A stretch of DNA of 64,000 nt from Escherichia coli (GTDB lineage Bacteria; Pseudomonadota; Gammaproteobacteria; Enterobacterales; Enterobacteriaceae). The notes beneath the pieces were generated by a model. It was not told the origin of the DNA, made no database searches, and was given only the letters and a program-made list of their open reading frames with translations. Location: the NCBI RefSeq assembly GCF_044647545.1, contig NZ_CP172818.1; one strand, written 5' to 3'. The translations under genes and the position numbers were made by a program. This document shows positions 36,052-50,532 of the stretch, piece after piece; the first letter of the stretch is position 1; the number at the start of each line of letters is the position of its first letter.

Positions 36052-36427
36052 AATGTCCTCAGATTAACGTTAGCGCCCGGACCGTCCGAGCGACGCTGCC
36101 ACGATGGTGGCTGTTTTGAAAATAGCCTGATTAATTTCTGTCTGTCCAGCGTTTTAGAACATTTTTATCAATGGCTTTAAATGAGGAACTCCACTTCAAA
36201 AACAGGAAATTTATCTGCGCTAACAAGAAAATTACCACTCATTTTATTAACATTATAATTTCAATAAATTTACCAAGCAGATGTGCATTATCAAGAGATG
36301 CATTGCTAATACACCATTTATCCTTCAATCCCCTTTTAAAATTGTGGTTTTTCCTCAAAAACGGCCTGCTGGTCATCAGCCTTCAGGTTACCTATCATAG
36401 AGGTTTAATCCTTATTCAGAGTCACCC

Positions 36428-38125
36428 GTGCACGAAATATTCAACATGCTGCTGGCGGTCTTCGATCGGGCAGCGTTAATGCTTATCTGCCTGTTTTTTC
36501 TCATCCGTATCCGCCTGTTTCGCGAACTGTTGCACAAGTCGGCACACTCACCGAAAGAGCTGCTCGCCGTTACCGCCATTTTCTCGCTGTTCGCCCTGTT
36601 CAGCACCTGGTCCGGAGTTCCCGTAGAAGGCTCGCTGGTGAACGTACGTATTATCGCGGTGATGTCAGGCGGGATTCTGTTTGGCCCGTGGGTGGGCATC
36701 ATTACCGGCGTGATTGCGGGTATTCATCGTTATTTAATTGACATCGGCGGCGTGACGGCGATCCCCTGCTTTATCACCAGCATTCTGGCGGGTTGTATAT
36801 CGGGCTGGATCAACCTGAAAATCCCCAAAGCACAGCGCTGGCGCGTCGGTATTCTCGGCGGCATGTTATGTGAAACGTTGACCATGATTCTGGTGATTGT
36901 CTGGGCACCAACTACCGCGTTGGGGATCGATATCGTCTCTAAAATCGGCATTCCAATGATCCTCGGTAGCGTCTGTATCGGCTTTATTGTGCTGCTGGTG
37001 CAAAGCGTTGAGGGCGAAAAAGAGGCCAGCGCCGCGCGGCAGGCCAAGCTGGCGCTGGATATCGCCAACAAAACGCTGCCGCTGTTTCGCCATGTCAATA
37101 GCGAGTCATTACGCAAGGTCTGCGAAATTATCCGCGATGACATTCACGCCGATGCGGTGGCGATTACAAATACCGATCATGTGCTGGCCTATGTTGGCGT
37201 GGGTGAGCATAACTATCAGAATGGCGATGATTTCATTAGCCCGACTACCCGCCAGGCGATGAATTACGGAAAAATCATCATTAAAAACAATGATGAAGCC
37301 CACCGCACACCAGAGATTCATTCCATGCTGGTGATCCCATTGTGGGAGAAAGGCGTTGTGACCGGAACGCTGAAAATTTACTACTGCCACGCGCATCAGA
37401 TAACCTCGTCATTACAGGAAATGGCGGTCGGTCTGTCACAAATCATCTCCACGCAACTGGAGGTTTCGCGCGCTGAGCAGCTGCGTGAAATGGCAAATAA
37501 GGCAGAGCTTCGCGCCCTGCAAAGCAAAATTAATCCCCATTTCCTGTTTAACGCTTTGAACGCTATTTCATCGTCAATCCGCCTGAATCCGGATACTGCT
37601 CGCCAGCTGATCTTTAATTTGTCGCGCTATCTGCGCTATAACATTGAATTAAAAGATGATGAGCAAATCGATATCAAAAAAGAGCTGTATCAAATTAAAG
37701 ACTATATTGCCATTGAGCAGGCCCGCTTTGGCGACAAGCTGACGGTTATCTATGATATTGATGAAGAGGTGAATTGCTGCATTCCCAGCCTGCTGATCCA
37801 GCCGTTGGTGGAAAACGCCATTGTCCACGGTATCCAGCCTTGCAAAGGTAAAGGCGTTGTCACCATCAGCGTTGCAGAGTGCGGTAATCGGGTACGTATT
37901 GCGGTGCGAGATACCGGGCACGGCATCGATCCAAAGGTGATTGAGCGGGTCGAAGCGAATGAAATGCCGGGCAATAAAATTGGCCTGCTGAATGTCCATC
38001 ATCGCGTGAAGTTATTGTATGGCGAGGGGCTGCATATCCGCCGCCTGGAACCAGGAACGGAAATTGCGTTTTACATTCCTAACCAACGCACCCCAGTCGC
38101 CTCACAGGCTACCTTATTGCTTTGA
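36428..38125 (+). CDS. ypdA: LytS-type sensor histidine kinase YpdA
   Basis: 565 aa; 5TM-LytS N-terminus, GAF-like region, His_kinase motif ([10 protein letters not shown]), HATPase. Confidence 0.9.
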
Positions 38126-38139
38126 GCCGGAGTGATATT

Positions 38140-38874
38140 GTGAAAGTCATCATTGTTGAAGACGAATTCCTGGCACAACAGGAACTGAGCTGGCTAATTA
38201 AAGAGCACAGCCAGATGGAGATTGTCGGCACCTTTGACGACGGTCTGGACGTGTTGAAGTTTTTGCAGCATAACCGCGTCGACGCCATTTTTCTGGATAT
38301 CAATATTCCGTCGCTGGATGGTGTGTTGCTGGCACAAAACATCAGCCAGTTCGCCCATAAACCGTTTATTGTGTTTATCACCGCGTGGAAAGAACATGCG
38401 GTAGAAGCGTTTGAACTGGAGGCGTTTGACTACATTCTCAAACCGTATCAGGAGTCACGCATTACCGGGATGCTGCAAAAACTGGAAGCAGCCTGGCAAC
38501 AACAGCAGACCAGCAGTACGCCTGCCGCGACGGTAACGCGTGAGAATGACACCATTAATCTGGTGAAAGATGAGCGAATCATCGTCACGCCCATTAACGA
38601 TATCTATTACGCCGAAGCGCATGAGAAAATGACCTTTGTCTATACGCGGCGTGAATCCTACGTAATGCCGATGAACATTACCGAGTTTTGCAGCAAGCTG
38701 CCGCCGTCGCATTTTTTCCGCTGCCATCGCTCATTTTGTGTCAATCTGAACAAAATCCGCGAGATCGAACCGTGGTTTAATAACACCTATATTCTGCGGC
38801 TGAAAGATCTGGATTTTGAAGTGCCGGTCAGCCGCAGCAAAGTTAAAGAATTCCGCCAGTTAATGCATCTTTAA
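38140..38874 (+). CDS. ypdB: LytTR-family response regulator YpdB
   Basis: ORF from 38122 (TTG); probable GTG start at 38140 gives 244 aa; receiver plus LytTR DNA-binding domain. Confidence 0.85.
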   Translation: MKVIIVEDEFLAQQELSWLIKEHSQMEIVGTFDDGLDVLKFLQHNRVDAIFLDINIPSLDGVLLAQNISQFAHKPFIVFITAWKEHAVEAFELEAFDYILKPYQESRITGMLQKLEAAWQQQQTSSTPAATVTRENDTINLVKDERIIVTPINDIYYAEAHEKMTFVYTRRESYVMPMNITEFCSKLPPSHFFRCHRSFCVNLNKIREIEPWFNNTYILRLKDLDFEVPVSRSKVKEFRQLMHL

Positions 38875-38886
38875 TCGGGAACTTTC

Positions 38887-39744
38887 ATGAAAGCACCAGG
38901 CTTGCCCGCCGATCAACAATTTTTCGCCGATCTGTTCAGCGGCCTGGTGCTTAACCCGCAACTACTGGGGCGCGTCTGGTTTGCCAGCCAGCCTGCCTCA
39001 TTGCCAGTGGGCAGTTTATGTATTGATTTTCCCCGTCTGGATATCGTGCTACGCGGCGAATACGGCAACCTGCTGGAAGCAAAGCAGCAGCGAATGGTGG
39101 AAGGAGAAATGCTGTTTATTCCGGCGCGCGCGGCTAATTTACCGGTCAACAACAAACCGGTGATGCTGTTAAGCCTGGTGTTCGCACCGACCTGGCTTGG
39201 GTTATCGTTTTACGATAGCCGCACCACGTCGTTGTTGCATCCTGCCCGCCAGATCCAGCTTCCCAGCCTGCAACGCGGTGAAGGTGAAGCGATGCTTACC
39301 GCCCTCACCCATCTTAGCCGTTCGCCGCTGGAGCAGAATATCATTCAGCCACTGGTGTTAAGTTTGCTGCATCTTTGCCGTAACGTGGTGAATATGCCGC
39401 CGGGCAATTCGCAGCCGCGCGGCGATTTTCTCTATCACAGCATTTGTAACTGGGTTCAGGATAATTATGCCCAGCCGCTCACCCGCGAGAGCGTGGCGCA
39501 GTTTTTTAATATCACGCCCAATCATCTGTCAAAACTGTTTGCTCAGCATGGAACAATGCGTTTTATCGAGTATGTTCGCTGGGTACGAATGGCAAAGGCA
39601 AGGATGATTTTGCAGAAATATCATCTGTCGATTCATGATGTGGCACAGCGTTGCGGTTTTCCGGACAGCGACTATTTTTGTCGCGTTTTCCGGCGTCAGT
39701 TTGGCCTGACGCCGGGAGAGTACAGCGCCCGTTTTCAGGGCTAA
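38887..39744 (+). CDS. ypdC: AraC-family transcriptional regulator YpdC
   Basis: 285 aa with C-terminal AraC-type HTH. Confidence 0.85.
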   Translation: MKAPGLPADQQFFADLFSGLVLNPQLLGRVWFASQPASLPVGSLCIDFPRLDIVLRGEYGNLLEAKQQRMVEGEMLFIPARAANLPVNNKPVMLLSLVFAPTWLGLSFYDSRTTSLLHPARQIQLPSLQRGEGEAMLTALTHLSRSPLEQNIIQPLVLSLLHLCRNVVNMPPGNSQPRGDFLYHSICNWVQDNYAQPLTRESVAQFFNITPNHLSKLFAQHGTMRFIEYVRWVRMAKARMILQKYHLSIHDVAQRCGFPDSDYFCRVFRRQFGLTPGEYSARFQG

Positions 39745-39746
39745 CG

Positions 39747-42242
39747 TCAGAAGGTTAATTCCGTTTCCAGCAGCGTCAGGATGCTTTGCGCATCTTGCGC
39801 GGCAAACAACGACTGGCGGAAGTTTTTATTCACCAGTTTGCGCGCCAGCTGCGAGAAGACTTTCACATGATTCATCCCTTCGTTAGCGCCCAGTGTCAGC
39901 ATGATCACCAGTTCGACTTCGCCCATTTCTGACTGCCAGTCAACCGGTTTCACCAGCCGGGCAATGCTGATACTGGAATGACGGATCCACTGAGATTTGG
40001 TGTGCGGGATCGCTACGCCAAAACCAACGCCGGTGGTAACAATCTCTTCCCGCTGCCAGACATCTTCTTCCAGCTCAAACGGATGTTCAGTACGCCCGTT
40101 AACACCAAGGTTGCCGCACAGGAACTGGATCGCCTGCTCTTTATTACTAAAGTCATGATCAACAAAGATATTCTCCAGCGCCAGCAGTGGGCGAACGTCT
40201 TCTTCCGGCGTAAAGGCGGTGAGTAACGCTTCAATCTCCTGCGCGCTGCGGCATTCACATGCCTGACGCGCCAGTTCCCGACACGCCTCGCTATCCAGTT
40301 GACGAAGCTGGCTTTTCACCGCCGGAATGCGCGGGCTACTCATACTCAGCTCGTCTAGGCCCAGCCCAAGCAGTAGCGGAAGATAACGGCTTTCACCGCC
40401 CAGTTCACCGCAAATACCTACCCATTTACCCCGCTGATGCGCAGTGGTAACAATCTGCTGCAACATGCGCAGGAACGATGGCGTAATCGGGTTATACAGC
40501 GGCGATACGCGCGGGTTATTACGATCGACCGCATACAGATACTGGGTCATATCGTTGGAGCCGATACTGAAGAAATCGACCTCATCGCAGAAGTGATCGA
40601 TGATGTAGCACACCGACGGCACTTCCACCATGATACCCAGCGTAATCGTCTCTGCATGACGCAGGCCATCGCGCTTAAGCTCAACGATCGCTTTTTGGAT
40701 CTCGCCCTTCACCCATAAGATCTGATCGAGGCTGTGAACCATCGGGATCATCAACTGGGCGTTGCCGAAACTGGCGGCGCGCAAAATGGCCCGCAGTTGA
40801 GTGCGAAACAGGCCAGCAAATTCCGGGTAAATACGTACCGCGCGATAGCCGAGGAACGGGTTCTCTTCCTGGGGAATATTCAGATAAGGAATGCTTTTAT
40901 CGCCGCCGATGTCCATCGTGCGGAAGATAATCGGCTTGTCGCCCGCCGCCAGTAGCACCTGCTGGTAGGCTTCAAATTGCTCCTGCTCGTCCGGCGCGCT
41001 GTCGCGATCCATATAGAGCATTTCGGTACGGAACAGCCCGACACCTTCCGCGCCGTTGGCAAACGCGCCTGGCGCTTCCAGAGCGGTGCCGATATTCGCC
41101 GCAATATCAATACGCTTGTTATCACGGGAATAGGCCAGCTGCGCGGCGGCCTGCGCCTGTTGTTTTTGGCGTTTATCCGCCAGCGTCTGCGCGACCTGAT
41201 AATAACCGCTCACCGCGTCATTCGGGTTAATCGCCAGCACGCCGCACTGGGCGTCAAGCACTGCCGGTTGCCCGGCATAGCGCGCGATCGCATCCAGCGG
41301 CAAGCCACTCAGTACCGGGATCGCCGAGGCACGGGCCAGAATCAGGGTATGCGAGGTGCGCCCGGTTTTCTCCAGAATCATGCCCGCAAGATTTTTTAAA
41401 TCGAGGCTCAAAAACTGGCTTGGGGTTAAATCTTCAGCCACCAGAATAGTCGGTTTTTCCAGCACCAGATTGTTGCGCGGTTTCAGTTCCGGCCAGGTGA
41501 TATGCAGCAACTGTTCGCTGATATCGCGAATGTCGCTGACCCGCTCGCGCAGATAATCACTGGCAGAAGCAGATAGTTTGGCGCAAACCTGCTCCATATT
41601 GCTGATGATCGCTGCACCCAGCCCCTGATGTTGTTCTGTCATCAGGCGACGGATATTGCCTGCAAATTCATCATCCTGAATCAGCGACAAATGGGCGCTG
41701 AGAATGGTTTTGCTTTCGCCGTCACGCTCGCGCAATTGCTGGTTCAGTTGCTCGGCAAGCGTTGCCAGGCTGTGCTCCAGCCGGGTGGAATCTTGCGCAC
41801 TGGCGGGGATCGCCCGGTAACTGTCGAGGCTGTCGCTCTGTAACAGGGTCAGCGTACCCACGCCAACGCCGCTTGCCAGCACGTTGCCGTACAGTAAATC
41901 CGGGTTCAGGCGGCTTAATGAACGCGGCAGCGGATGCGCCGTCAGTTCTGCCTGCGTTGGCTGGACGCTGTCGCTGTCGATAAAGCGCACCTGGATGTAC
42001 TCTTCCAGCACGCGCCGCGCCTGCTCTTCATCGCTGCCGCTAATGTTCAGGCTGCAACTGTCATTAAATAGGGTGCCGGTGCCAATCAGCGCCAGCGAGC
42101 TTTTGGCATCAGCCCTGGCGTTCTGGCGATGATTAATAAAGGTGACTTCACTTTGCCACTGGCTGCACTGCTCTTTAAGTTCCCACGCCGGACGAGCATG
42201 CAGACCGTTTGGCAAAGGACAGAGAAATTGAATCGTTAACAT
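39747..42242 (-). CDS. fryA: PTS multiphosphoryl transfer protein FryA (HPr-EI-IIA fusion)
   Basis: 831 aa with HPr-like N-terminus, enzyme I PEP-utilising domain and C-terminal IIA(Fru)-like domain. Confidence 0.9.
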   Translation of the reverse strand: MLTIQFLCPLPNGLHARPAWELKEQCSQWQSEVTFINHRQNARADAKSSLALIGTGTLFNDSCSLNISGSDEEQARRVLEEYIQVRFIDSDSVQPTQAELTAHPLPRSLSRLNPDLLYGNVLASGVGVGTLTLLQSDSLDSYRAIPASAQDSTRLEHSLATLAEQLNQQLRERDGESKTILSAHLSLIQDDEFAGNIRRLMTEQHQGLGAAIISNMEQVCAKLSASASDYLRERVSDIRDISEQLLHITWPELKPRNNLVLEKPTILVAEDLTPSQFLSLDLKNLAGMILEKTGRTSHTLILARASAIPVLSGLPLDAIARYAGQPAVLDAQCGVLAINPNDAVSGYYQVAQTLADKRQKQQAQAAAQLAYSRDNKRIDIAANIGTALEAPGAFANGAEGVGLFRTEMLYMDRDSAPDEQEQFEAYQQVLLAAGDKPIIFRTMDIGGDKSIPYLNIPQEENPFLGYRAVRIYPEFAGLFRTQLRAILRAASFGNAQLMIPMVHSLDQILWVKGEIQKAIVELKRDGLRHAETITLGIMVEVPSVCYIIDHFCDEVDFFSIGSNDMTQYLYAVDRNNPRVSPLYNPITPSFLRMLQQIVTTAHQRGKWVGICGELGGESRYLPLLLGLGLDELSMSSPRIPAVKSQLRQLDSEACRELARQACECRSAQEIEALLTAFTPEEDVRPLLALENIFVDHDFSNKEQAIQFLCGNLGVNGRTEHPFELEEDVWQREEIVTTGVGFGVAIPHTKSQWIRHSSISIARLVKPVDWQSEMGEVELVIMLTLGANEGMNHVKVFSQLARKLVNKNFRQSLFAAQDAQSILTLLETELTF

Positions 42243-42266
42243 AACCGCTCCGGGTTAATCAGGAGA

Positions 42267-43304
42267 TCATCTGAAATCCGTCAGTTGAACAACCGTCTCA
42301 CGGGTAAGACGTTGAATAAGGGCAGATAAAAGCTGCTGCATCTGCAAAATGTCGCGGCAGTCGGCAATCGATGCGGCGCAATGTCCGTGGCGGGTTGCTG
42401 GCCCCATCACCACTGTGGGTACGCCAGTGCCGGTTAAATGCACCGCCCCGCCGTCCGTTCCGCCGTTGCTGAACATATCGGCCTGCAACGGCACGCCAAT
42501 TTCTGCCGCCACGGTTTCAATCCACGCGGTAAGTTTTGGCGGCGCAATCAGCGACTTGTCGCTTAACACCAGCATCGGCCCGTTACCAATCTGGCGATGG
42601 TTAGCCGCGCCATAATCAAAGTTTTTCGCCCAGCAGGCGGTATCAAGCACAATGGCGACATCCGGCGACACCGCGCGGGTGGCAGTTTGCCCGCCGCGTA
42701 ATCCCACCTCTTCGCTGGAACTTGCCACCAGCCACACTTCCGCAGGCAGTTCGGCGTCGTGCAGCTCACGCAGTAACGTCACCAGCAGATAGCAACCGAG
42801 GCGGTCATCAAAGGCTTTCCCCATTACCCGCTGGTGAGGGAGAACCTGAAAAGTGGTATCAAAGGTGACGCGATCGCCTGGACGAATTCCCGCCTGCATC
42901 ACTTCGTCACACGAGCGCGCGCCAATGTCCACGCGCATGGTGCTGACGTCATTCCCCTGCCGGTCGCCGTCAAGCAGGCCTGGAATTTTGCACTCTTCAC
43001 GGGTAGTGATACGCACCGACTGAAGCTGGCGGGCAGCCATGCGTACATTGCCAACCGGCAACACATCGATCGCCCCTTCGCGGGAGATGCTGCGCACCAT
43101 AAATCCCACTTCGTCCATATGCGCACAGATCATCACCTTCGGACCTGTCGATTCATTGAGGCGGATCAGCACCGATCCCAGGCCGTCAAATCGCACTTCT
43201 TTTTGCAGGCGATCCGCTTCTTCCAGCAGGATCTGCCGTACTTCCTGTTCCGAGGAGGCGATCGCATCTGCCTCGCTCAACGCTTTTAATAACGATAAAT
43301 CCAT
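42267..43304 (-). CDS. ypdE: M42-family aminopeptidase YpdE
   Basis: 345 aa, FrvX/M42 peptidase-like. Confidence 0.85.
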
Positions 43305-44389
43305 TATGCCTCTCCCGTGAGCAACACTGTTTTCGGCATGGCGTAGAGCACTTCTGCGCCTTGCGGGGTGACCAGCACAACATCTTCGATGCGCACGCCC
43401 CCTTGCCCTGGCAAATAAATCCCCGGCTCCACGGTCAGTAACATGCCTGGCTGTAGCGTCGTGGTGTCCCGCGGTGAAAAACGCGGATCTTCATGGACTT
43501 CAATGCCGATAGCATGACCGGTGTTATGACCGAAATAGTCGCCAAATCCAGCCTCGGTAATCACCCGGCGCGCGGCGTCGTCAACCTGCTGGCAGCGCAC
43601 GCCGGGGCGAATCGCGGAGATTGCCGCCAGCTGTGCCTGCAAAACAATCTGATAGACGTCAAACAGCGGGTGAGATTCGGCGCTCACCCCTTCGCCATTC
43701 ACCAGCAAGGTGCGTGTCATATCAGAGCAGTAGCCCTGATAGAGCGCACCGAAATCGAGAGTGACAAACTCGCCCGCTGCAACAATCTTGTCGCTGGCTT
43801 TGCCGTGCGGCAGCGCCCCACGCCAGCCGCTGGCGACAATGGTATCGAAAGAGGCTTTTTCTGCGCCCTGCTGGCGCATAAACCACTCCAGTTCAGCGGC
43901 TATCTCGCGCTCGCTCATCCCCGCCTGAATAAAGCGGCGAATATGCTCAGCACCGCGATCGGCAATCCCACAGGCGAGGCGGATTTTCTCCACCTCCTCT
44001 GGCGTTTTGATTTGCCGCAGCACATCCGGCGTGGCGCTAACCAGTTTCGCATTGAGTTCAGACTGCCAGCGGTGCGCGGTTTCCCAACTCACCTGCTGGC
44101 CCTCAAAACCGAGCGTTTGCAACTGCTCATCGGCAATGATTTGCCTGGCGATGGTGGTCAGCGTGTGCGTCGCATCAAGCAAATGCAGTTGGTAGCCTTG
44201 CGTGCGGGCTTCTACATCTACGTAATAGCGCGAGTCCACCAGAATGTGCGCACTTTCACGGCTAATCAGCACATAGCCTGATCCGGTGGAGATCCCCAGA
44301 TGCGGCTGTTTGTTCTGCCGTGAGGAGAGAAGCACCGCATCCAGTTGTTGCGCCTTAAGCCAGTCGCGCAGCGAGGCAAGTAATGTCAT
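43304..44389 (-). CDS. ypdF: Xaa-Pro aminopeptidase YpdF (M24 family)
   Basis: 361 aa, M24 metallopeptidase motifs ([13 protein letters not shown]). Confidence 0.85.
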
Positions 44390-44403
44390 CAGGATTGTCC
44401 TTC

Positions 44404-45651
44404 TTACAGGCTATCGATTAACAATTTGCCTTTGCGGAACATCATCAGACGCAGGAACACCACCATCAGCGCAGTTATGACTGCCCCCAGCGCGATCCCC
44501 GCCATGTAGACGCCGAGGTTAGTGACCAGCGGCCATGCCCAGATAGCGGACTCCGGGAACCATTGCACTGCGCCCAGCCAGACTGCAGCGGTTGAGCCGA
44601 CAATCGCGCCAACCATATAGGACGGAATGGCGGTGATGGGACTTTCCAGTGCAAACGGAATCGCACCTTCACTGATCCCCATAAACGCCAGGAACATGGC
44701 GGTTTTACCCTGCGGATAAAGCTGAGCACTGAACAGACGTTTGCCGGTTAAACGGCGGTCGATAATGGTCGCCAGACCCAGACCAATCGGCGGAATAACA
44801 ATAGCGATGGAACGCGCGGTAACCGGTAATACGTGGTCAGTGGTAAAGCTGAAGGCAACGAAACCAGCTGCTTTGTTGATCGGGCCACCAAGGTCGATTG
44901 CTGTCGCCGCGGCGATCCCCATCGCGTACATCAGCGCGCCCTTCTCACCTGCGGCAGTCAGCACGGTACGGATACCGCCGTTGATCCAGCCGCCAAAGGG
45001 GGTGATGACGTAGTACATCGCCAGCATGACAAAAATGGCGGAAAGAATCGGTAGCAAAAATGTGGTTTTGAACGCTAACAGGAAATCCGGTAACTGGATT
45101 TTCTGGTTCATCCACTTCACAAGGTAACCGGCAACGATAGATATAATCAGGGCACCAATGAAGGTGGACGGTACCGGCGAAGAGGTCGCCCATTGCATAG
45201 TGCTGGGATCGAAGTTCAGCAGTTGCGTCGGCTGGGTAGACATCAACCCGCCGATAAAACCAGCCGGGAACGCCAGTTTGCCACCGATAGAGTTCGCCAC
45301 AAATGCAGCAAACATCGGAATGGCAAAACCAAACAACACGCCGCCGAAGGACTGCGACAACCAGGCAAATTTCAGTAAGGAGAGGTCGAAACCGGAGAAT
45401 TTCCCGCTATTAAGAGCATCCATGATGCCGATATCAGCAGGAATTTTAAGCCAGCTATAAGCAATCAGCTGGCTGAAAGCGAGGATCACACCGCCCATAA
45501 TTAAGGTCGGCACCATGCGTGAAATCCCTGACATCACATGCTGCGGGAGTTCACCCCAGAAGCTGCTTTTAGAGGCCTGCGGATTCTTAACTGCCGCTGC
45601 CGCACCGGATGCGCCAGGCACAACGGTTGCACTGCGTTTTTTAATGGCCAT
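44404..45651 (-). CDS. fryC: PTS fructose-like EIIC component FryC
   Basis: 415 aa polytopic membrane protein, fructose-family IIC. Confidence 0.9.
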
Positions 45652-45672
45652 AACAATTATCCCTGTCGAATA

Positions 45673-45999
45673 TTACTGTTGTTCAGAGGCAATCATCTCT
45701 TCGATTTCTTTGATGATGCCCGCAGCGTTTTTAATTGCGTCCTGCAAAGTGATTTCATAAACGTCGCGTGATTCGAAACGTTCGTTATCTTCCGGGGTAA
45801 CCGCCACGGAGTGGATGATGATGGTCGCTTCGGCGATATCCTGCGCGGTCAGGCGATTCTGGATACCGTCCGCGCCCTGAGTTTCAATTTTCACTTCATA
45901 GCCTGCTTCCACCGCCGCTTCTTCCAGCGCCTGGGCTGCCATAAAGGTGTGAGCCAGACCCATCGGGCAGGCACATAAAGCAATCAGTTTCTTACTCAT
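45673..45999 (-). CDS. fryB: PTS fructose-like EIIB component FryB
   Basis: ORF 45673-46050; start chosen at MSKKLIALCACPMG (108 aa), with the IIB active-site Cys motif. Confidence 0.85.
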   Translation of the reverse strand: MSKKLIALCACPMGLAHTFMAAQALEEAAVEAGYEVKIETQGADGIQNRLTAQDIAEATIIIHSVAVTPEDNERFESRDVYEITLQDAIKNAAGIIKEIEEMIASEQQ

Positions 46000-46217
46000 C
46001 GTTAATTCCTCGTTCAGTGATAGTTGACGAGTGAAATTATGAACGTGCAAAACAAATCGCCGTTACCAGACAAATAATGCATTTACTGGAGAATTAATCC
46101 CGCTGTACGGAAGTGTGACGCAGGTCGGCCTTGTGAGGTGACACAAAGAAAAATTGAATTAACTGTATGATTTAAAAGATTATCGGGAGAGTTATCTCCC
46201 GATTTGACAGGAAGGAT

Positions 46218-47183
46218 TTACAGAATGTGACCTAAGGTCTGGCGTAAATGTGCACCGGAACCGAGAAGACCCGGATTGTCATGGACGATGAGATATACCG
46301 GAATATCATGGACATATTCCTTAAAGCGCCCTTTATCTTCAAATGCGGCGCGGAAACCAGAGGCTTTGAAGAACTCAAGGAAGCGCGGCACGATACCACC
46401 CGCAATAAACACGCCGCCAAATGTCCCGAGATTGAGCGCCAGATTGCCGCCAAAACGGCCCATAATGACGCAAAACAGCGACAACGCGCGGCGGCAATCG
46501 GTGCAGCTGTCAGCCAGCGCGCGTTCGGTAATATCTTTTGGCTTGAGATTTTCTGGCAGGCGGTTGTCGGCTTTAACAATTGCGCGATACAAATTCACCA
46601 GCCCAGGGCCAGAAAGCACGCGCTCTGCCGAAACATGACCAATTTCTGCACGCAGTATTTCGAGGATAATGCCCTCTTCTTCACTATTCGGCGCAAAATC
46701 AACGTGACCGCCTTCGCCTGGCAAGCTTACCCAACGCTTATCGACATGGACCAGATGCGCAACCCCTAGCCCCGTTCCGGCACCGTAAACCGCAATAGGC
46801 TTACCTTCTACCGGTTCTGCGCCACCAAACTGAATCAGATGCTCTTTTTTCAGCATCGGGATCGCCATCGATACAGCAGTAAAATCGTTAATAATTTCCA
46901 GATGGCTAAAACCGAGATTCTTTTTCATTTCGGCAATTGAGAACGCCCAGGTATGGTTGGTCATTGCCACCCAGTCACCGGTAATTGGGCAAGCGATGGC
47001 AATACAGCCGTCTTTCACCTCGACCTTATGTTCTTCAAGATAAACGCGAATGACCGCTTCGAGGCTGGGGTAATCAAGCCCTGAATAGGTCTTAGCCTGC
47101 GAGATTTCACCACTGGCAATATCACACAGAGCAAGACGTGCGTTGGTGCCGCCCACATCACCGACTAATGCATACTTTGTCAT
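46218..47183 (-). CDS. glk: Glucokinase
   Basis: 321 aa, N-terminal [18 protein letters not shown]-binding motif. Confidence 0.92.
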
Positions 47184-47386
47184 TCTTCAACTGCTCCGCT
47201 AAAGTCAAAATAATTCTTTCTCACACTGTAAATACCTGGGGGCATAACAACAACGCCGGAAAGGCAGGCTCCCTGTAAATATCGATCTGGGTCACACAAT
47301 TACTTTATCGTTTCAGCACCAATTGCAGCGATGCCTTTTTGCAAGCTGGGCAAACTAAGTATCTGACCCCGCATAAGGAATAGAAC

Positions 47387-48643
47387 ATGCTCCATCCGCG
47401 AGCCAGAACCATGTTGTTATTATCGCTCCCCGCCGTGGCAATTGGGATTGCGTCCAGTCTTATTCTGATTGTGGTGATGAAAATCGCCTCGGTATTACAG
47501 AATTTGCTCTGGCTACGACTGCCGGGAACTCTGGGGATAGCCCAGGATTCACCTTTCTGGATCATCGCCATATTAACGCTAACAGGTATTGCGGTGGGGT
47601 TGGTTATCCGTTTCAGCCAGGGGCATGCTGGACCTGACCCCGCCTGTGAACCGCTGATCGGCGCACCAGTTCCGCCCTCTGCGCTACCAGGACTTATCGT
47701 AGCATTAATTCTCGGTCTTGCTGGCGGCGTCAGCCTGGGGCCGGAACATCCGATCATGACCGTCAATATCGCCCTTGCGGTTGCGATAGGTGCTCGTCTG
47801 TTACCGCGCGTCAACCGGATGGAGTGGACTATTTTAGCCTCTGCTGGAACTATCGGCGCGCTGTTTGGCACACCTGTTGCGGCGGCGTTGATATTTTCGC
47901 AAACCTTAAATGGCAGTAGTGAAGTCCCGCTATGGGATCGTCTCTTTGCGCCGTTAATGGCGGCGGCGGCTGGTGCGCTAACCACCGGATTGTTTTTCCA
48001 TCCTCATTTTTCACTGCCCATTGCGCATTATGGGCAGATGGAGATGACCGATATTCTCAGCGGTGCAATTGTGGCGGCGATTGCCATCGCAGCAGGGATG
48101 GTTGCCGTATGGTGTCTGCCACGGTTGCACGCGATGATGCATCAGATTAAAAATCCGGTGCTAATGCTGGGAGTGGGCGGATTTATTCTCGGTATTCTGG
48201 GGGTTATTGCTGGACCAGTTTCGCTATTTAAAGGGCTGGATGAGATGCAGCAGATGGTGGCAAATCAGGCTTTCAGCACCAGCGATTACTTTTTGCTGGC
48301 CGTGATTAAACTTGCCGCTCTCGTGGTTGCTGCCGCCAGTGGCTTTCGCGGTGGGCGAATCTTCCCGGCAGTGTTTGTCGGGGTGGCATTAGGGTTGATG
48401 CTGCATGAGCACGTTCCCGCCGTTCCAGCGGCAATAACCGTTTCCTGCGCTATTCTCGGCATCGTGCTGGTGGTAACACGCGATGGCTGGTTAAGTCTTT
48501 TTATGGCGGCAGTCGTTGTACCCAATACCACATTGCTACCGCTGCTCTGTATCGTCATGCTTCCGGCATGGCTGTTATTAGCAGGTAAGCCGATGATGAT
48601 GGTCAATCGTCCGAAGCAACAGCCACCCCACGATAACGTTTAG
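47387..48643 (+). CDS. yfeO: ClC-related putative ion-transport membrane protein YfeO
   Basis: 418 aa polytopic membrane protein. Confidence 0.85.
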
Positions 48644-48757
48644 CAAAAAATGCTCTCCTTTATGATTTAAGAGTTATGGCGATGATACGGGGCTTTACCT
48701 CCCCGTAATATTGCGTTAACAGGCCGCTGACGGCTTCGATCGTGAAGGAGAATAACA

Positions 48758-49084
48758 ATGTTCAGGTCACTGTTTCTGGCGGCCGCCCTGATGGCATTTA
48801 CCCCGCTTGCGGCAAACGCAGGTGAAATCACCCTACTGCCATCAATCAAATTACAAATTGGCGATCGCGATCATTACGGTAATTACTGGGACGGTGGTCA
48901 CTGGCGCGACCGTGACTACTGGCATCGCAATTATGAATGGCGTAAGAACCGCTGGTGGCGTCATGATAATGGCTACCACCGTGGCTGGGATAAGCGTAAA
49001 GCCTATGAGCGTGGCTATCGTGAAGGCTGGCGCGATCGTGATGATCATCGCGGAAAAGGCCGCGGACATGGGCATCGCCATTAA
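48758..49084 (+). CDS. ypeC: Secreted DUF2502-type protein YpeC
   Basis: 108 aa: signal peptide then a strongly charged W/R/D/H-rich repetitive region. Confidence 0.8.
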
Positions 49085-49107
49085 ACACATTTGCCAATGG
49101 AGCACAA

Positions 49108-49197
49108 TGCCTGATGCGACGCTAGCGCGTCTTATCAGGCCTACAAACCAGCTCTTTAACGCGTAGGGCGGATAAAGCATTTACGCCGCATCCGCCA
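49108..49197. repeat. REP/BIME element (two inverted REP units) between ypeC and mntH
   Basis: TGCCTGATGCGACGCTAGCGCGTCTTATCAGGCCTAC and inverted GGCGGATGCGGCGTAAATGCTTTATCCGCCCTAC match REP palindromic-unit consensus. Confidence 0.75.
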
Positions 49198-49224
49198 ATG
49201 GTGCCAAATGCGACGCTCATTCAA

Positions 49225-50472
<1,248 letters not shown>

Positions 50473-50475
50473 CTA

Positions 50476-50497
50476 AAACATAGCCTTTGCTATGTTT
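50476..50497. promoter_or_regulatory. MntR operator palindrome upstream of mntH
   Basis: AAACATAGCCTTTGCTATGTTT, perfect 9-bp arms, matching the MntR box as I recall it. Confidence 0.6.
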
Positions 50498-50513
50498 CAT
50501 GCTATGTCAAACG

Positions 50514-50532
50514 AGAATGATTATCAAATTCA
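50514..50532. promoter_or_regulatory. Candidate Fur box upstream of mntH
   Basis: GAGAATGATTATCAAATTC resembles the GATAATGATAATCATTATC Fur consensus. Confidence 0.45.

Follow-up and report, generated by a model that had tools for sequence, protein, structure and literature searches.

What would a small exported protein of extreme amino acid composition, encoded beside the gene of an Nramp metal importer, do in the envelope of Escherichia coli? The locus in question lies at 48758-49084 on the plus strand of a 64,000-nt stretch of E. coli DNA (contig NZ_CP172818.1 of RefSeq assembly GCF_044647545.1), which was analysed as a whole and is referred to below as the window. An earlier note on this DNA had named the product YpeC, described it as secreted and built of W/R/D/H-rich repeats with a His-rich tail, and suggested that it binds metal or an envelope polymer.

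The name agrees with both the annotation and the profile search. The ORF (108 codons and a stop, giving 108 aa) is the annotated E. coli ypeC, labelled "DUF2502 domain-containing protein YpeC" in RefSeq, with yfeO on one side and convergent mntH on the other. Pfam PF10697 (DUF2502) matched residues 23-106 over its whole 90-position profile with 85.4 bits (E=3.1e-24; gathering score 27 bits), and in YpeC the signal peptide is followed by the core motif GDRDxxGxYWDGxxWR, the combination that defines membership of DUF2502. Of 5426 complete E. coli genomes, at least 5322 contain the whole region. We are practically certain that the locus is ypeC and that this monocistronic gene, part of the Enterobacteriaceae core, encodes a small soluble DUF2502 protein exported to the periplasm. 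Since gene, family and regulation had all been described before, finding it in a genome scan adds little; as to function, the papers commenting on DUF2502 proteins describe the family as uncharacterised.

When 1.84 billion proteins were searched with a DUF2502 profile, only 117 clusters were recovered. The members sampled came mostly from Enterobacterales, with a few from Betaproteobacteria (Jeongeupia, Azonexus), and no secondary Pfam family recurred among 96 of them. Searches of Pfam, NCBIfam and PDB sequences with YpeC gave DUF2502 as the sole match, and no similarity to carbohydrate-binding, lipid-binding or other characterised families was detectable, either by sequence or by fold. The gene neighbourhoods of distant members are unrelated to one another, for which reason their neighbours were rejected as a functional clue. 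One distant member is located near a bufferin/ECF-sigma operon, at a single genomic locus seen in two contigs of the same organism. About 20 distant members carry two true copies of the core, with units 29 residues apart.

The coding sequence and the parts of its product are listed here by position:

48758..49084, plus strand: ypeC coding sequence, the only frame open in all orthologues, with dN/dS of 0.00-0.24
48758..48820, plus strand: predicted Sec-type signal peptide, residues 1-21, read from the sequence, with A-x-A and h-region conserved in the family
48824..48967, plus strand: DUF2502 core, residues 23-70, a short hydrophobic strand and then the motif region, drawn from Pfam, family conservation and AlphaFold
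48968..49045, plus strand: Enterobacteriaceae-specific conserved C-half, residues 71-96, tetrads x-[G/A]-[Y/W]-x and then DRDD, drawn from the orthologue alignment and dN/dS
49046..49081, plus strand: His/Gly/Arg tail, residues 97-108, drawn from orthologue and family comparison

The signal peptide has a basic n-region, a hydrophobic h-region and A-x-A at -3/-1, with a predicted cut between ANA and GE, and this layout is kept across the family; neither a lipobox nor a Cys is present in the YpeC sequence. Signal-peptide removal would leave 87 aa, made up of a compact aromatic/Asp/Gly core of ~40 residues, a tetrad segment and a His/Gly/Arg tail. The composition proved as extreme as had been claimed: W, R, D, H, Y and G make up 63 of the 87 mature residues (72% vs 25% expected; binomial P~1e-20), with R at 18%, G at 15%, D at 11.5%, H at 10%, W at 9% and Y at 8%, and only 10 residue types occur from residue 35 to the C-terminus. 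The mature protein has a pI of ~10, a net charge of +7 and a GRAVY of -2.1. This is not drifting low-complexity sequence, as purifying selection is very strong, with dN/dS of 0.00-0.24 in comparisons of ypeC with 11 genera (dS near saturation).

In the core, G35, G41, Y43, W44, D45 and G46 are invariant among 96 DUF2502 members, and conservation reaches 90% or more at P28, D36, D38, W49, R50 and W55; the conserved columns contain neither His nor Cys. The core of ~40 residues (GDRDxxGxYWDGxxWRD..W) is modelled confidently by AlphaFold, with pLDDT at residues ~31-70 of 84-91 in the first model and 75-86 in the second (two independent alignments) and with a predicted helix at 52-58 and hairpin at 59-68. 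PDB and fold comparison of the core gave no match.

The C-half shows dN/dS of 0.00-0.09 at residues 71-96, and at the same locus C-halves are wholly different between enterobacterial families. Its genuine repeat is the tetrad x-[G/A]-[Y/W]-x (NGYH RGWD ..) at residues 71-92, whose copy number differs between species, extra RGWD or KGWY units being inserted in this region of YpeC orthologues. The RD/GW/HR repeats of the earlier note did not hold up: their counts are within or barely above those of composition-preserving shuffles (RD 5 vs 2.2, p=0.03; GW p=0.39; HR p=0.09). Residues 73-108 have an AlphaFold pLDDT below 50, and only the orthologue-only model showed a helix at 79-91, with low confidence. 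The confidently modelled core and the purifying selection speak against a protein that is simply disordered or repetitive. A long internal repeat (best self-alignment 37 vs 36±6.8 in shuffles) and an origin of the C-half as a diverged second core copy (hhalign probability 4%, with WRDRD alone aligned) were rejected. The tail is indeed His-rich, with His at 5 of 12 residues.

When is this protein made? In published data, the gene is up 42-60x with the Rcs regulon under LolCDE inhibition (PMC5105897) and 24x lower in an rcsB-disrupted O157 strain (PMC5343319). MarA was found at ypeC in ETEC by ChIP-seq and by in-vitro binding at 0.3 uM, the site sequence being GCATTTTTTGCTAAA (PMC5684230), and the SoxS ChIP-seq site for ypeC in Salmonella has the same sequence (PMC10268841). 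Moreover, YaaX, the product of a ypeC paralogue, is a member of the RcsB regulon (PMC2731931, PMC3599342), and the promoter of a Serratia homologue has been used as an Rcs reporter (PMC8470065). The regulators of ypeC documented in the literature found all belong to envelope or antibiotic stress, with no metal sensor among them. On the published evidence, ypeC is a MarA/SoxS target and a strongly Rcs-dependent gene; its putative cis-elements were checked here in the window:

48639..48653, minus strand (reverse relative to ypeC): marbox GCATTTTTTGCTAAA, MarA/SoxS/Rob site, an exact match that overlaps the yfeO stop codon
48664..48675, plus strand: block GATTTAAGAGTT, conserved in 18 genera and holding a TA(A/G)GA half-site at 48668-48672
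48682..48711, plus strand: predicted sigma-70 core promoter, with -35-like ATGATA at 48682-48687, an 18-nt spacer and -10 TAATAT at 48706-48711
48718..48757, plus strand: predicted 40-nt 5' UTR, containing a hairpin (48721-48736) and then AAGGAG (48745-48750) as the Shine-Dalgarno sequence

Nowhere else in the 64-kb window does the marbox sequence occur exactly (0.01 occurrences expected by chance), and most of 79 scanned Enterobacteriaceae loci have a match with up to three mismatches between about -119 and -104 relative to the ATG. The marbox of the window is reversed with respect to ypeC, and its centre would lie at about -72 if transcription starts at A48718, a position itself predicted from the conserved -10 TAATAT. 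Class I marboxes are defined by reverse orientation and a location 53-73 bp upstream of the start (PMC10268841). TAAGA at 48668-48672, just upstream of the -35, may be an RcsB half-site. The canonical RcsB box is TN(G/A)GAN4TC(T/C)NA (PMC7913699); a scan of 36168-49631 that allowed up to one mismatch gave no match to it, so that Rcs control of ypeC may be indirect.

The promoter segment GTAATATT is nearly invariant in 18 genera, and so is CGATCGTGAAGGAGA in the 5' UTR. An inverted repeat, ACGGGG-N8-CCCCGT (48686-48707), occupies the spacer region, its hairpin being kept in about 11 of the 18 genera; that of the 5' UTR is kept in 16 of 18, with differing stems and loops. The Shine-Dalgarno sequence ends 7 nt before the ATG. 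An automatic consensus scan for promoters and terminators near ypeC returned nothing useful and did not call the predicted promoter, as is expected of an activator-dependent one. From the literature and these cis-elements, ypeC has a predicted weak sigma-70 promoter of its own, MarA/SoxS-type activators bind the marbox upstream of it, in what would be a class I position, and expression depends strongly on the Rcs envelope-stress phosphorelay; ypeC is expressed neither from nor with the mntH promoter.

The second E. coli DUF2502 protein, YaaX (b0005), is like YpeC in its signal peptide and core (62% identity over residues 2-66), in its Rcs regulation and in having a His-rich tail. The two promoters are also alike, with TA(A/G)GA 38 nt before a GTAAT(A/C)T -10; upstream of yaaX, it is GATTAGGATT that holds TAGGA, 38 nt before the -10-like GTAATCT. 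However, after the core YaaX carries a PPPPP/His/Lys tail and has neither tetrad repeat nor WRDRDD segment, yaaX adjoins thrC and yaaA where ypeC adjoins mntH, and no marbox was recognised by eye upstream of yaaX. A looser likeness links YpeC to OsmB, YcfJ, YmgD/YmgG, Ivy, Spy and YpfG, which are co-induced with it in the same data sets and are likewise small, exported and mostly monocistronic, most of them having no assigned function. None has a sequence relationship to YpeC, which matches DUF2502 alone, and compared with other Rcs-induced envelope proteins YpeC is no lipoprotein and has no hydrophobic glycine zipper.

Taking these data together, we tentatively favour the reading that YpeC works on its own in the periplasm and binds a glycan or an anionic component of the envelope, which is possible rather than probable. 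The envelope half of the binding idea in the earlier note fits the published regulation. YpeC would act alone, with no operon partner, and bind a common polar component of the envelope; the unrelated neighbourhoods of distant DUF2502 members were counted for such stand-alone action. Residues W, Y, H, R, D and N are generally over-represented at protein-carbohydrate interfaces, and their enrichment in YpeC leads us to infer the type of ligand. The likeliest would be a glycan or anionic polymer, for example peptidoglycan, LPS core, enterobacterial common antigen, periplasmic glucans or colanic acid, bound via Trp/Tyr stacking and hydrogen bonds from Arg, Asp, Asn and His, while the His-rich tail might give this binding pH or metal sensitivity. 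The role served would be protection or repair of the envelope while the Rcs or Mar/Sox responses are active. A membrane-binding amphipathic helix at 79-92 was rejected (hydrophobic moment p=0.16; unfavourable Wimley-White interfacial energies), a result also counted for a glycan or anionic ligand.

The family distribution bears on the envelope-binder reading in both directions. To our knowledge, Enterobacterales is the only order with Rcs, and the predominance of this order among sampled DUF2502 members counts for it. The members from Jeongeupia and Azonexus count against it, as we know of no Rcs and no enterobacterial common antigen in Betaproteobacteria. The same holds for the missing similarity to any carbohydrate- or lipid-binding family. 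Net charge ranges from -14 to +12 across DUF2502, so that simple attraction between polycation and polyanion cannot be the conserved mechanism. It is also important to note that carbohydrate- and choline-binding 'YG' cell-wall repeats resemble DUF2502 in a short G-x-aromatic-aromatic-D-G unit, present once or twice per protein; YpeC gave no Pfam, PDB sequence or fold match to them and should not be filed among 'YG' cell-wall-binding repeat proteins.

The main rival, which we regard as unlikely, is that Zn, Ni, Cu or Mn is bound by the His/Asp-rich tail, perhaps together with the invariant Asp residues of the core, and that YpeC serves periplasmic buffering or hand-over of metal, perhaps for MntH. 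His-rich tails recur family-wide, including GHGHGHH and HHDHHHDHHHH types, and His enrichment is the one property common to the otherwise unrelated tails of distant members (16-17%, about 7 times the proteome frequency), which gives indirect support to metal binding. UniRef names one Pantoea member a 'zinc ABC transporter substrate-binding protein' (a name taken from the source, not a test), and yaaX is one of the genes that change in cusS mutants (PMC10920338). Against this, no His or Cys position is conserved in the DUF2502 core, the tail in E. coli is degenerate as well as short, tail length and sequence vary among YpeC orthologues, and metal binding would leave 9% Trp unexplained. ZraP, ZinT, RcnB and histatin-like His/Arg/Gly/Tyr peptides are comparable in that an exported protein carries a short low-complexity His/Gly/Arg/Asp-rich tail; there is no homology between YpeC and ZraP, ZinT or RcnB, and ypeC has no metal-responsive cis-elements. 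More generally, no characterised metal-binding family came up as a homologue in searches of Pfam, NCBIfam and PDB. When the C-half and a tail of the CPPGQAKKGxC type, a Cys motif that presumably also occurs in RcnB-like proteins, were used in word-based searches, these returned YpeC fragments or nothing.

The neighbourhood provides the remaining argument for a role in metal handling. As the earlier note had it, a REP/BIME element and mntH lie downstream of ypeC, mntH being at 49225-50463 on the minus strand and the element between the two genes:

49109..49217, no strand assigned: REP pair (BIME-like) and a partial third, with REPs at 49109-49144 (plus) and 49163-49196 (minus) and the partial unit at 49203-49217 (plus)

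A pattern scan found the two REP palindromes as inverted repeats in alternating orientation, the arrangement expected of a BIME, with Rfam naRNA4 (REP-derived) matches that, at 51 and 41 bits, stay under the gathering score (59.5). A consensus scan found no intrinsic terminator between ypeC and mntH, and both mRNAs probably have the REP pair as their 3' end. Of 80 Enterobacteriaceae loci, 70 keep the convergent order of ypeC and mntH, as do the positional orthologues in Pantoea and Chimaeribacter. However, this synteny belongs to a whole conserved block, ipdC-gpr-ypeC-mntH-nupC, whereas DUF2502 paralogues and distant members do not adjoin mntH. The mntH promoter contains a perfect MntR palindrome (50477-50496) and a Fur-like box (50513-50531), which are 1.4-1.8 kb from ypeC on the far side of mntH, and the scan for MntR/Fur boxes upstream of ypeC gave nothing better than chance-level matches. 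Since the two genes are convergent, a shared promoter is impossible, and the main text of both papers reporting the 24-60x changes in ypeC (PMC5105897, PMC5343319) does not list mntH. The suggested link between ypeC and mntH, for which the earlier note had proposed co-regulation as a check, is not supported.

It is distinctly improbable that YpeC is a hydrophilin-like protein, that is, a very hydrophilic and partly disordered periplasmic protectant or chaperone acting non-specifically under osmotic, desiccation or acid stress. Hydrophilins are usually recognised by Gly above 6% and a mean hydrophilicity above 1, and YpeC, with its Gly content and GRAVY, falls within these limits of composition; the low pLDDT of residues 73-108 and the induction of ypeC alongside osmotic and RpoS-type stress genes point the same way. 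The R-, G-, Y- and W-rich composition might even permit self-association through Arg-Tyr/Trp 'stickers'. Yet conservation is position-specific and very strong even in the part predicted to be disordered, the confidently modelled core is at odds with a largely unstructured protein, and the invariant motif positions across the family argue for specific recognition over bulk physical chemistry.

Still less probable, in our opinion, is a feedback role in which YpeC and YaaX modulate RcsF, IgaA or another sensor in the periplasm, as CpxP does for Cpx. The rank of YpeC among the most strongly Rcs-induced periplasmic proteins, the Rcs regulation of both paralogues and the mostly Enterobacterales membership, similar to the distribution of Rcs as we know it, would suit such a loop; the betaproteobacterial members do not, and C-halves so different between enterobacterial families are hard to square with a conserved protein partner. 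Finally, there is practically no chance that YpeC is no real protein, whether as a chance ORF in skewed DNA or because the true product lies in another frame: three other frames across the stretch do hold ORFs of 83-119 aa, but these alternatives were rejected as not conserved (2.4-9.6 stops on average), the annotated frame is the sole one open in 74 of 74 orthologues, and this test and a dN/dS far below 1 refute the idea, next to the Pfam match and the strong conserved Shine-Dalgarno sequence.

Overall, few genes are induced through Rcs as strongly as ypeC, which is also conserved as a target of MarA/SoxS and occurs in practically every E. coli; this makes it a clean small target within the 'y-ome'. 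A defined ligand of YpeC would add an effector to two clinically relevant responses, those to envelope damage and of multiple antibiotic resistance, and would also give DUF2502 a function.

The open reading frame at window 48758-49084 (plus strand) comprises 108 codons from an ATG start, 7 nt downstream of the Shine-Dalgarno sequence AAGGAG, and lies between yfeO (plus strand) and the convergent mntH (minus strand). RefSeq labels it 'DUF2502 domain-containing protein YpeC', and its product matches PF10697 (DUF2502) in Pfam at 85.4 bits against a cut-off of 27 (E=3e-24); NCBIfam holds no model for it. The earlier note therefore named the gene correctly, and both ypeC and the DUF2502 family are already annotated and do not represent a novel type of element. 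Over 661 bp around ypeC, several complete E. coli chromosomes are 100% identical, and 5322 of 5426 complete E. coli genomes contain at least 80% of this stretch.

The N-terminus of YpeC shows the n/h/c layout and A-x-A site of signal-peptidase-I substrates (cleavage |GE), a layout kept throughout the DUF2502 family. With no lipobox and no Cys, a soluble periplasmic protein is predicted, and at the sequence level the proposed secretion holds. So does the extreme composition: six residue types (R 18%, G 15%, D 11.5%, H 10%, W 9%, Y 8%) account for 63 of the 87 positions of the mature chain, where average E. coli frequencies would predict 25% (P~1e-20). Just ten residue types make up everything between residue 35 and the C-terminus; the mature chain has a pI of ~10 and a GRAVY of -2.1. 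The RD/GW/HR repeats claimed alongside were not recovered as such: in a shuffle test on the mature chain RD occurred 5 times vs 2.2 expected (p=0.03), while GW and HR gave p=0.39 and p=0.09. A long internal repeat was rejected, the best self-alignment equalling the shuffle mean, and so was a reading of the C-half as a diverged copy of the core, since profile-profile comparison of the two halves aligned WRDRD alone at 4% probability. What is real is a short repeat, x-[G/A]-[Y/W]-x, in five copies at residues 71-92; orthologues carry extra RGWD or KGWY units inserted in this segment.

YpeC is a constrained protein and not drifting low complexity. Comparisons with eleven other genera gave dN/dS values, read with dS near saturation, of 0.01-0.24 for the DUF2502 core (residues 22-68) and 0.00-0.09 for residues 69-96, and the annotated frame is the sole one of six open in all 74 orthologous genes. 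Overlapping ORFs of 119, 109 and 83 aa occur in three other frames at window 48807-49180; none of these frames is conserved in the 74 orthologues, and the ORFs are by-products of the ypeC codon set. Protein databases also hold frameshifted translations of the region (e.g., P0143 and P0163).

The family is small. A profile of 23 YpeC orthologues retrieved only 117 clusters from 1.84 billion representative proteins, and a pattern scan across genomes of ~100,000 species yielded 466 confirmed relatives, the best 80 of which are all YpeC orthologues. Two of these 80 look like contaminated assemblies: a 398-bp contig filed as Rhizobium wenxiniae (L008) is 100% identical to E. coli ypeC, and one filed as Chryseobacterium sp. 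18061 (L061) carries an enterobacterial ypeC-mntH-nupC block. Named members outside Enterobacteriaceae come from Serratia, Chimaeribacter, Pantoea, an unclassified gammaproteobacterium and the betaproteobacteria Jeongeupia and Azonexus. As a hallmark, the signal peptide leads into a short hydrophobic strand, and the motif GDRDxxGxYWDGxxWRDxxWW follows; none of 96 sequences deviates at G35, G41, Y43, W44, D45 or G46, and ~20 clusters contain two motif copies 29 residues apart. Past the core, each lineage has its own sequence: only Enterobacteriaceae carry the E. coli-type C-half, and in Pantoea and Chimaeribacter the positional orthologues end in tails of unrelated sequence (Arg/Gln/Trp/His-rich or Pro/His/GYER-repeat); across unrelated tails His stays at 16-17%, with net charge from -14 to +12. 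About eight distant members, including those of Jeongeupia and Azonexus, end in CPPGQAKKGxC, a motif whose like presumably also occurs in RcnB-like proteins; the members with this ending (P0165, P0173, P0183, P0196, P0201, P0205, P0208, P0211) have few His. In a gammaproteobacterial MAG (L001 1-4904), the DUF2502 gene is preceded by three small unannotated genes and adjoins an ECF sigma/anti-sigma pair and a bufferin-type operon (BufA1, MbnB, HvfC, DoxX). This context may be coincidental, because it was found for one protein only (L001 and the short contig L002).

Downstream of ypeC, the expected REP/BIME element was confirmed, followed by mntH with its promoter on the far side:

window 49109-49144, plus strand: REP palindrome
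window 49163-49196, minus strand: REP palindrome
window 50477-50496: perfect MntR palindrome AACATAGCAAAGGCTATGTT in the mntH promoter
window 50513-50531: Fur-like box in the mntH promoter

A partial third REP copy lies beside the pair. Matches to the REP-derived Rfam family naRNA4 in this region score slightly under threshold. A 14-aa 'hypothetical protein' CDS in RefSeq overlaps the mntH start (window 50456-50500, minus strand; L007 4357-4401). The convergent ypeC-mntH-nupC arrangement is old: 70 of 80 Enterobacteriaceae loci share it, as do Pantoea and Chimaeribacter. It belongs to a wider conserved block, ipdC-gpr-ypeC-mntH-nupC; yaaX (the E. coli paralogue), a Serratia paralogue and the members from betaproteobacteria and MAGs are located elsewhere. 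Several Citrobacter loci (L015, L019-L021, L023, L082) keep a ypeC orthologue with the same marbox (MarA/SoxS/Rob site) variant, GCACTTTTTGTTAAT, and have no mntH within 3 kb downstream, which points to this junction having undergone an insertion or rearrangement in some members of Citrobacter. Neither an MntR nor a Fur box was found in the ypeC upstream region, and mntH is not mentioned in the main text of two studies in which ypeC changes 24-60-fold (PMC5105897, PMC5343319). Since the genes are convergent, the MntR/Fur boxes confined to the mntH side and the synteny part of a wider block, co-regulation of ypeC with mntH, which the earlier note wanted checked, is not supported; synteny is the sole positive evidence for a functional link, which is conceivable. 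The same synteny, together with family-wide His enrichment, would speak for metal binding by the YpeC tail, but the core has no conserved His or Cys and ypeC shows no metal-type regulation, so that we consider this reading doubtful.

AlphaFold was run with a whole-family alignment on the precursor and with an orthologue-only alignment on the mature chain. Both models share a compact unit at residues ~31-70 (short bridges, helix 52-58, hairpin 59-68), with pLDDT of 84-91 and 75-86, respectively, and both fall below 50 after residue ~73. A helix at 79-91, absent from the first run and of low confidence in the second, has no significant amphipathicity and unfavourable interfacial partitioning energies. 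Disorder is predicted for the C-terminal part; residues ~31-70 are modelled confidently. No solved structure resembled YpeC by sequence or by fold, which is weak evidence because the domain is so small. A hydrophilin-like protectant would suit the very hydrophilic, Gly-rich chain and its low-confidence part; it is less likely still than metal binding, given site-specific conservation and a core predicted to fold.

At the transcriptional level, ypeC is linked to both the Rcs and the Mar/Sox stress response. The gene is among 33 MarA ChIP-seq targets in enterotoxigenic E. coli, purified MarA binds its site gcattttttgctaaa at 0.3 uM, and the same paper states that it is also a SoxS ChIP-exo target (PMC5684230); a Salmonella SoxS peak covers an identical sequence (PMC10268841). 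Besides this marbox, an 18-genus alignment revealed conserved blocks upstream of the gene, listed here after the marbox:

window 48639-48653, minus strand: marbox gcattttttgctaaa, a 15-mer occurring once in the window and overlapping the yfeO stop codon
window 48664-48675: conserved block GATTTA(A/G)GAGTT
window 48668-48672 (yaaX locus: L091 248-252): TA(A/G)GA half-site
ATGATA: -35-like element of the predicted promoter
window 48686-48707: inverted repeat ACGGGG-N8-CCCCGT in the -35/-10 spacer
window 48706-48711: nearly invariant -10, TAATAT
window 48721-48736: 5'-UTR hairpin, 3-4 nt past the predicted TSS
Shine-Dalgarno region, conserved

In most of 79 Enterobacteriaceae loci, a marbox match (up to 3 mismatches) lies at ~-119 to -104 from the ATG, at a roughly constant distance whatever gene is upstream. 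Relative to the predicted TSS, A48718, the reverse-oriented marbox would have its centre at -72, which matches the definition of class I in PMC10268841. The spacer hairpin, kept in ~11 of 18 genera partly by base changes on both arms (ACAAAGC…GCTTCGT in Salmonella), may act as a terminator-like element for the gene upstream, or else as a regulatory structure. The 5'-UTR hairpin, present in 16 of 18 genera with differing stems and loops, resembles a 5' stabiliser; the UTR as a whole folds with unexceptional energy (z=-0.5).

As for Rcs, LolCDE inhibition raises ypeC 42-60-fold together with osmB, bdm and wca genes (PMC5105897), and in an rcsB-disrupted O157:H7 strain it falls 24-fold (PMC5343319). 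Published lists of the RcsB regulon include the paralogue yaaX (PMC2731931, PMC3599342), and a Serratia DUF2502 promoter serves as an Rcs reporter (PMC8470065). The full RcsB box, TN(G/A)GAN4TC(T/C)NA (PMC7913699), was found at neither ypeC nor yaaX; in both, TA(A/G)GA stands exactly 38 nt before a -10-like GTAAT(A/C)T, and we propose this half-site as a candidate non-canonical RcsB site. The two promoters apparently owe their shared geometry to the gene duplication. Such strong induction and a mostly Enterobacterales distribution might recall an Rcs feedback modulator, but lineage-specific C-halves and members beyond Enterobacterales make this the least likely reading.

On our results, YpeC is a small, conserved and exported protein that stands alone and has a folded aromatic/acidic core. 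No function is reported in the papers covered here, and those that comment on YpeC describe it as uncharacterised or of unknown function. W, Y, H, R, D and N are typical of carbohydrate-binding surfaces; this enrichment, with unfavourable membrane insertion, leads us to favour, tentatively, a glycan or an anionic polymer of the envelope as the ligand. The periplasmic target of YpeC would be a ubiquitous component of the envelope, not a dedicated partner, and the His-rich tail of YpeC may add pH or metal dependence. Of the metal or envelope-polymer binding first suggested, the envelope link stands through regulation, whereas the metal and mntH links do not. Overall, the value of ypeC is that of a well-defined uncharacterised stress protein.
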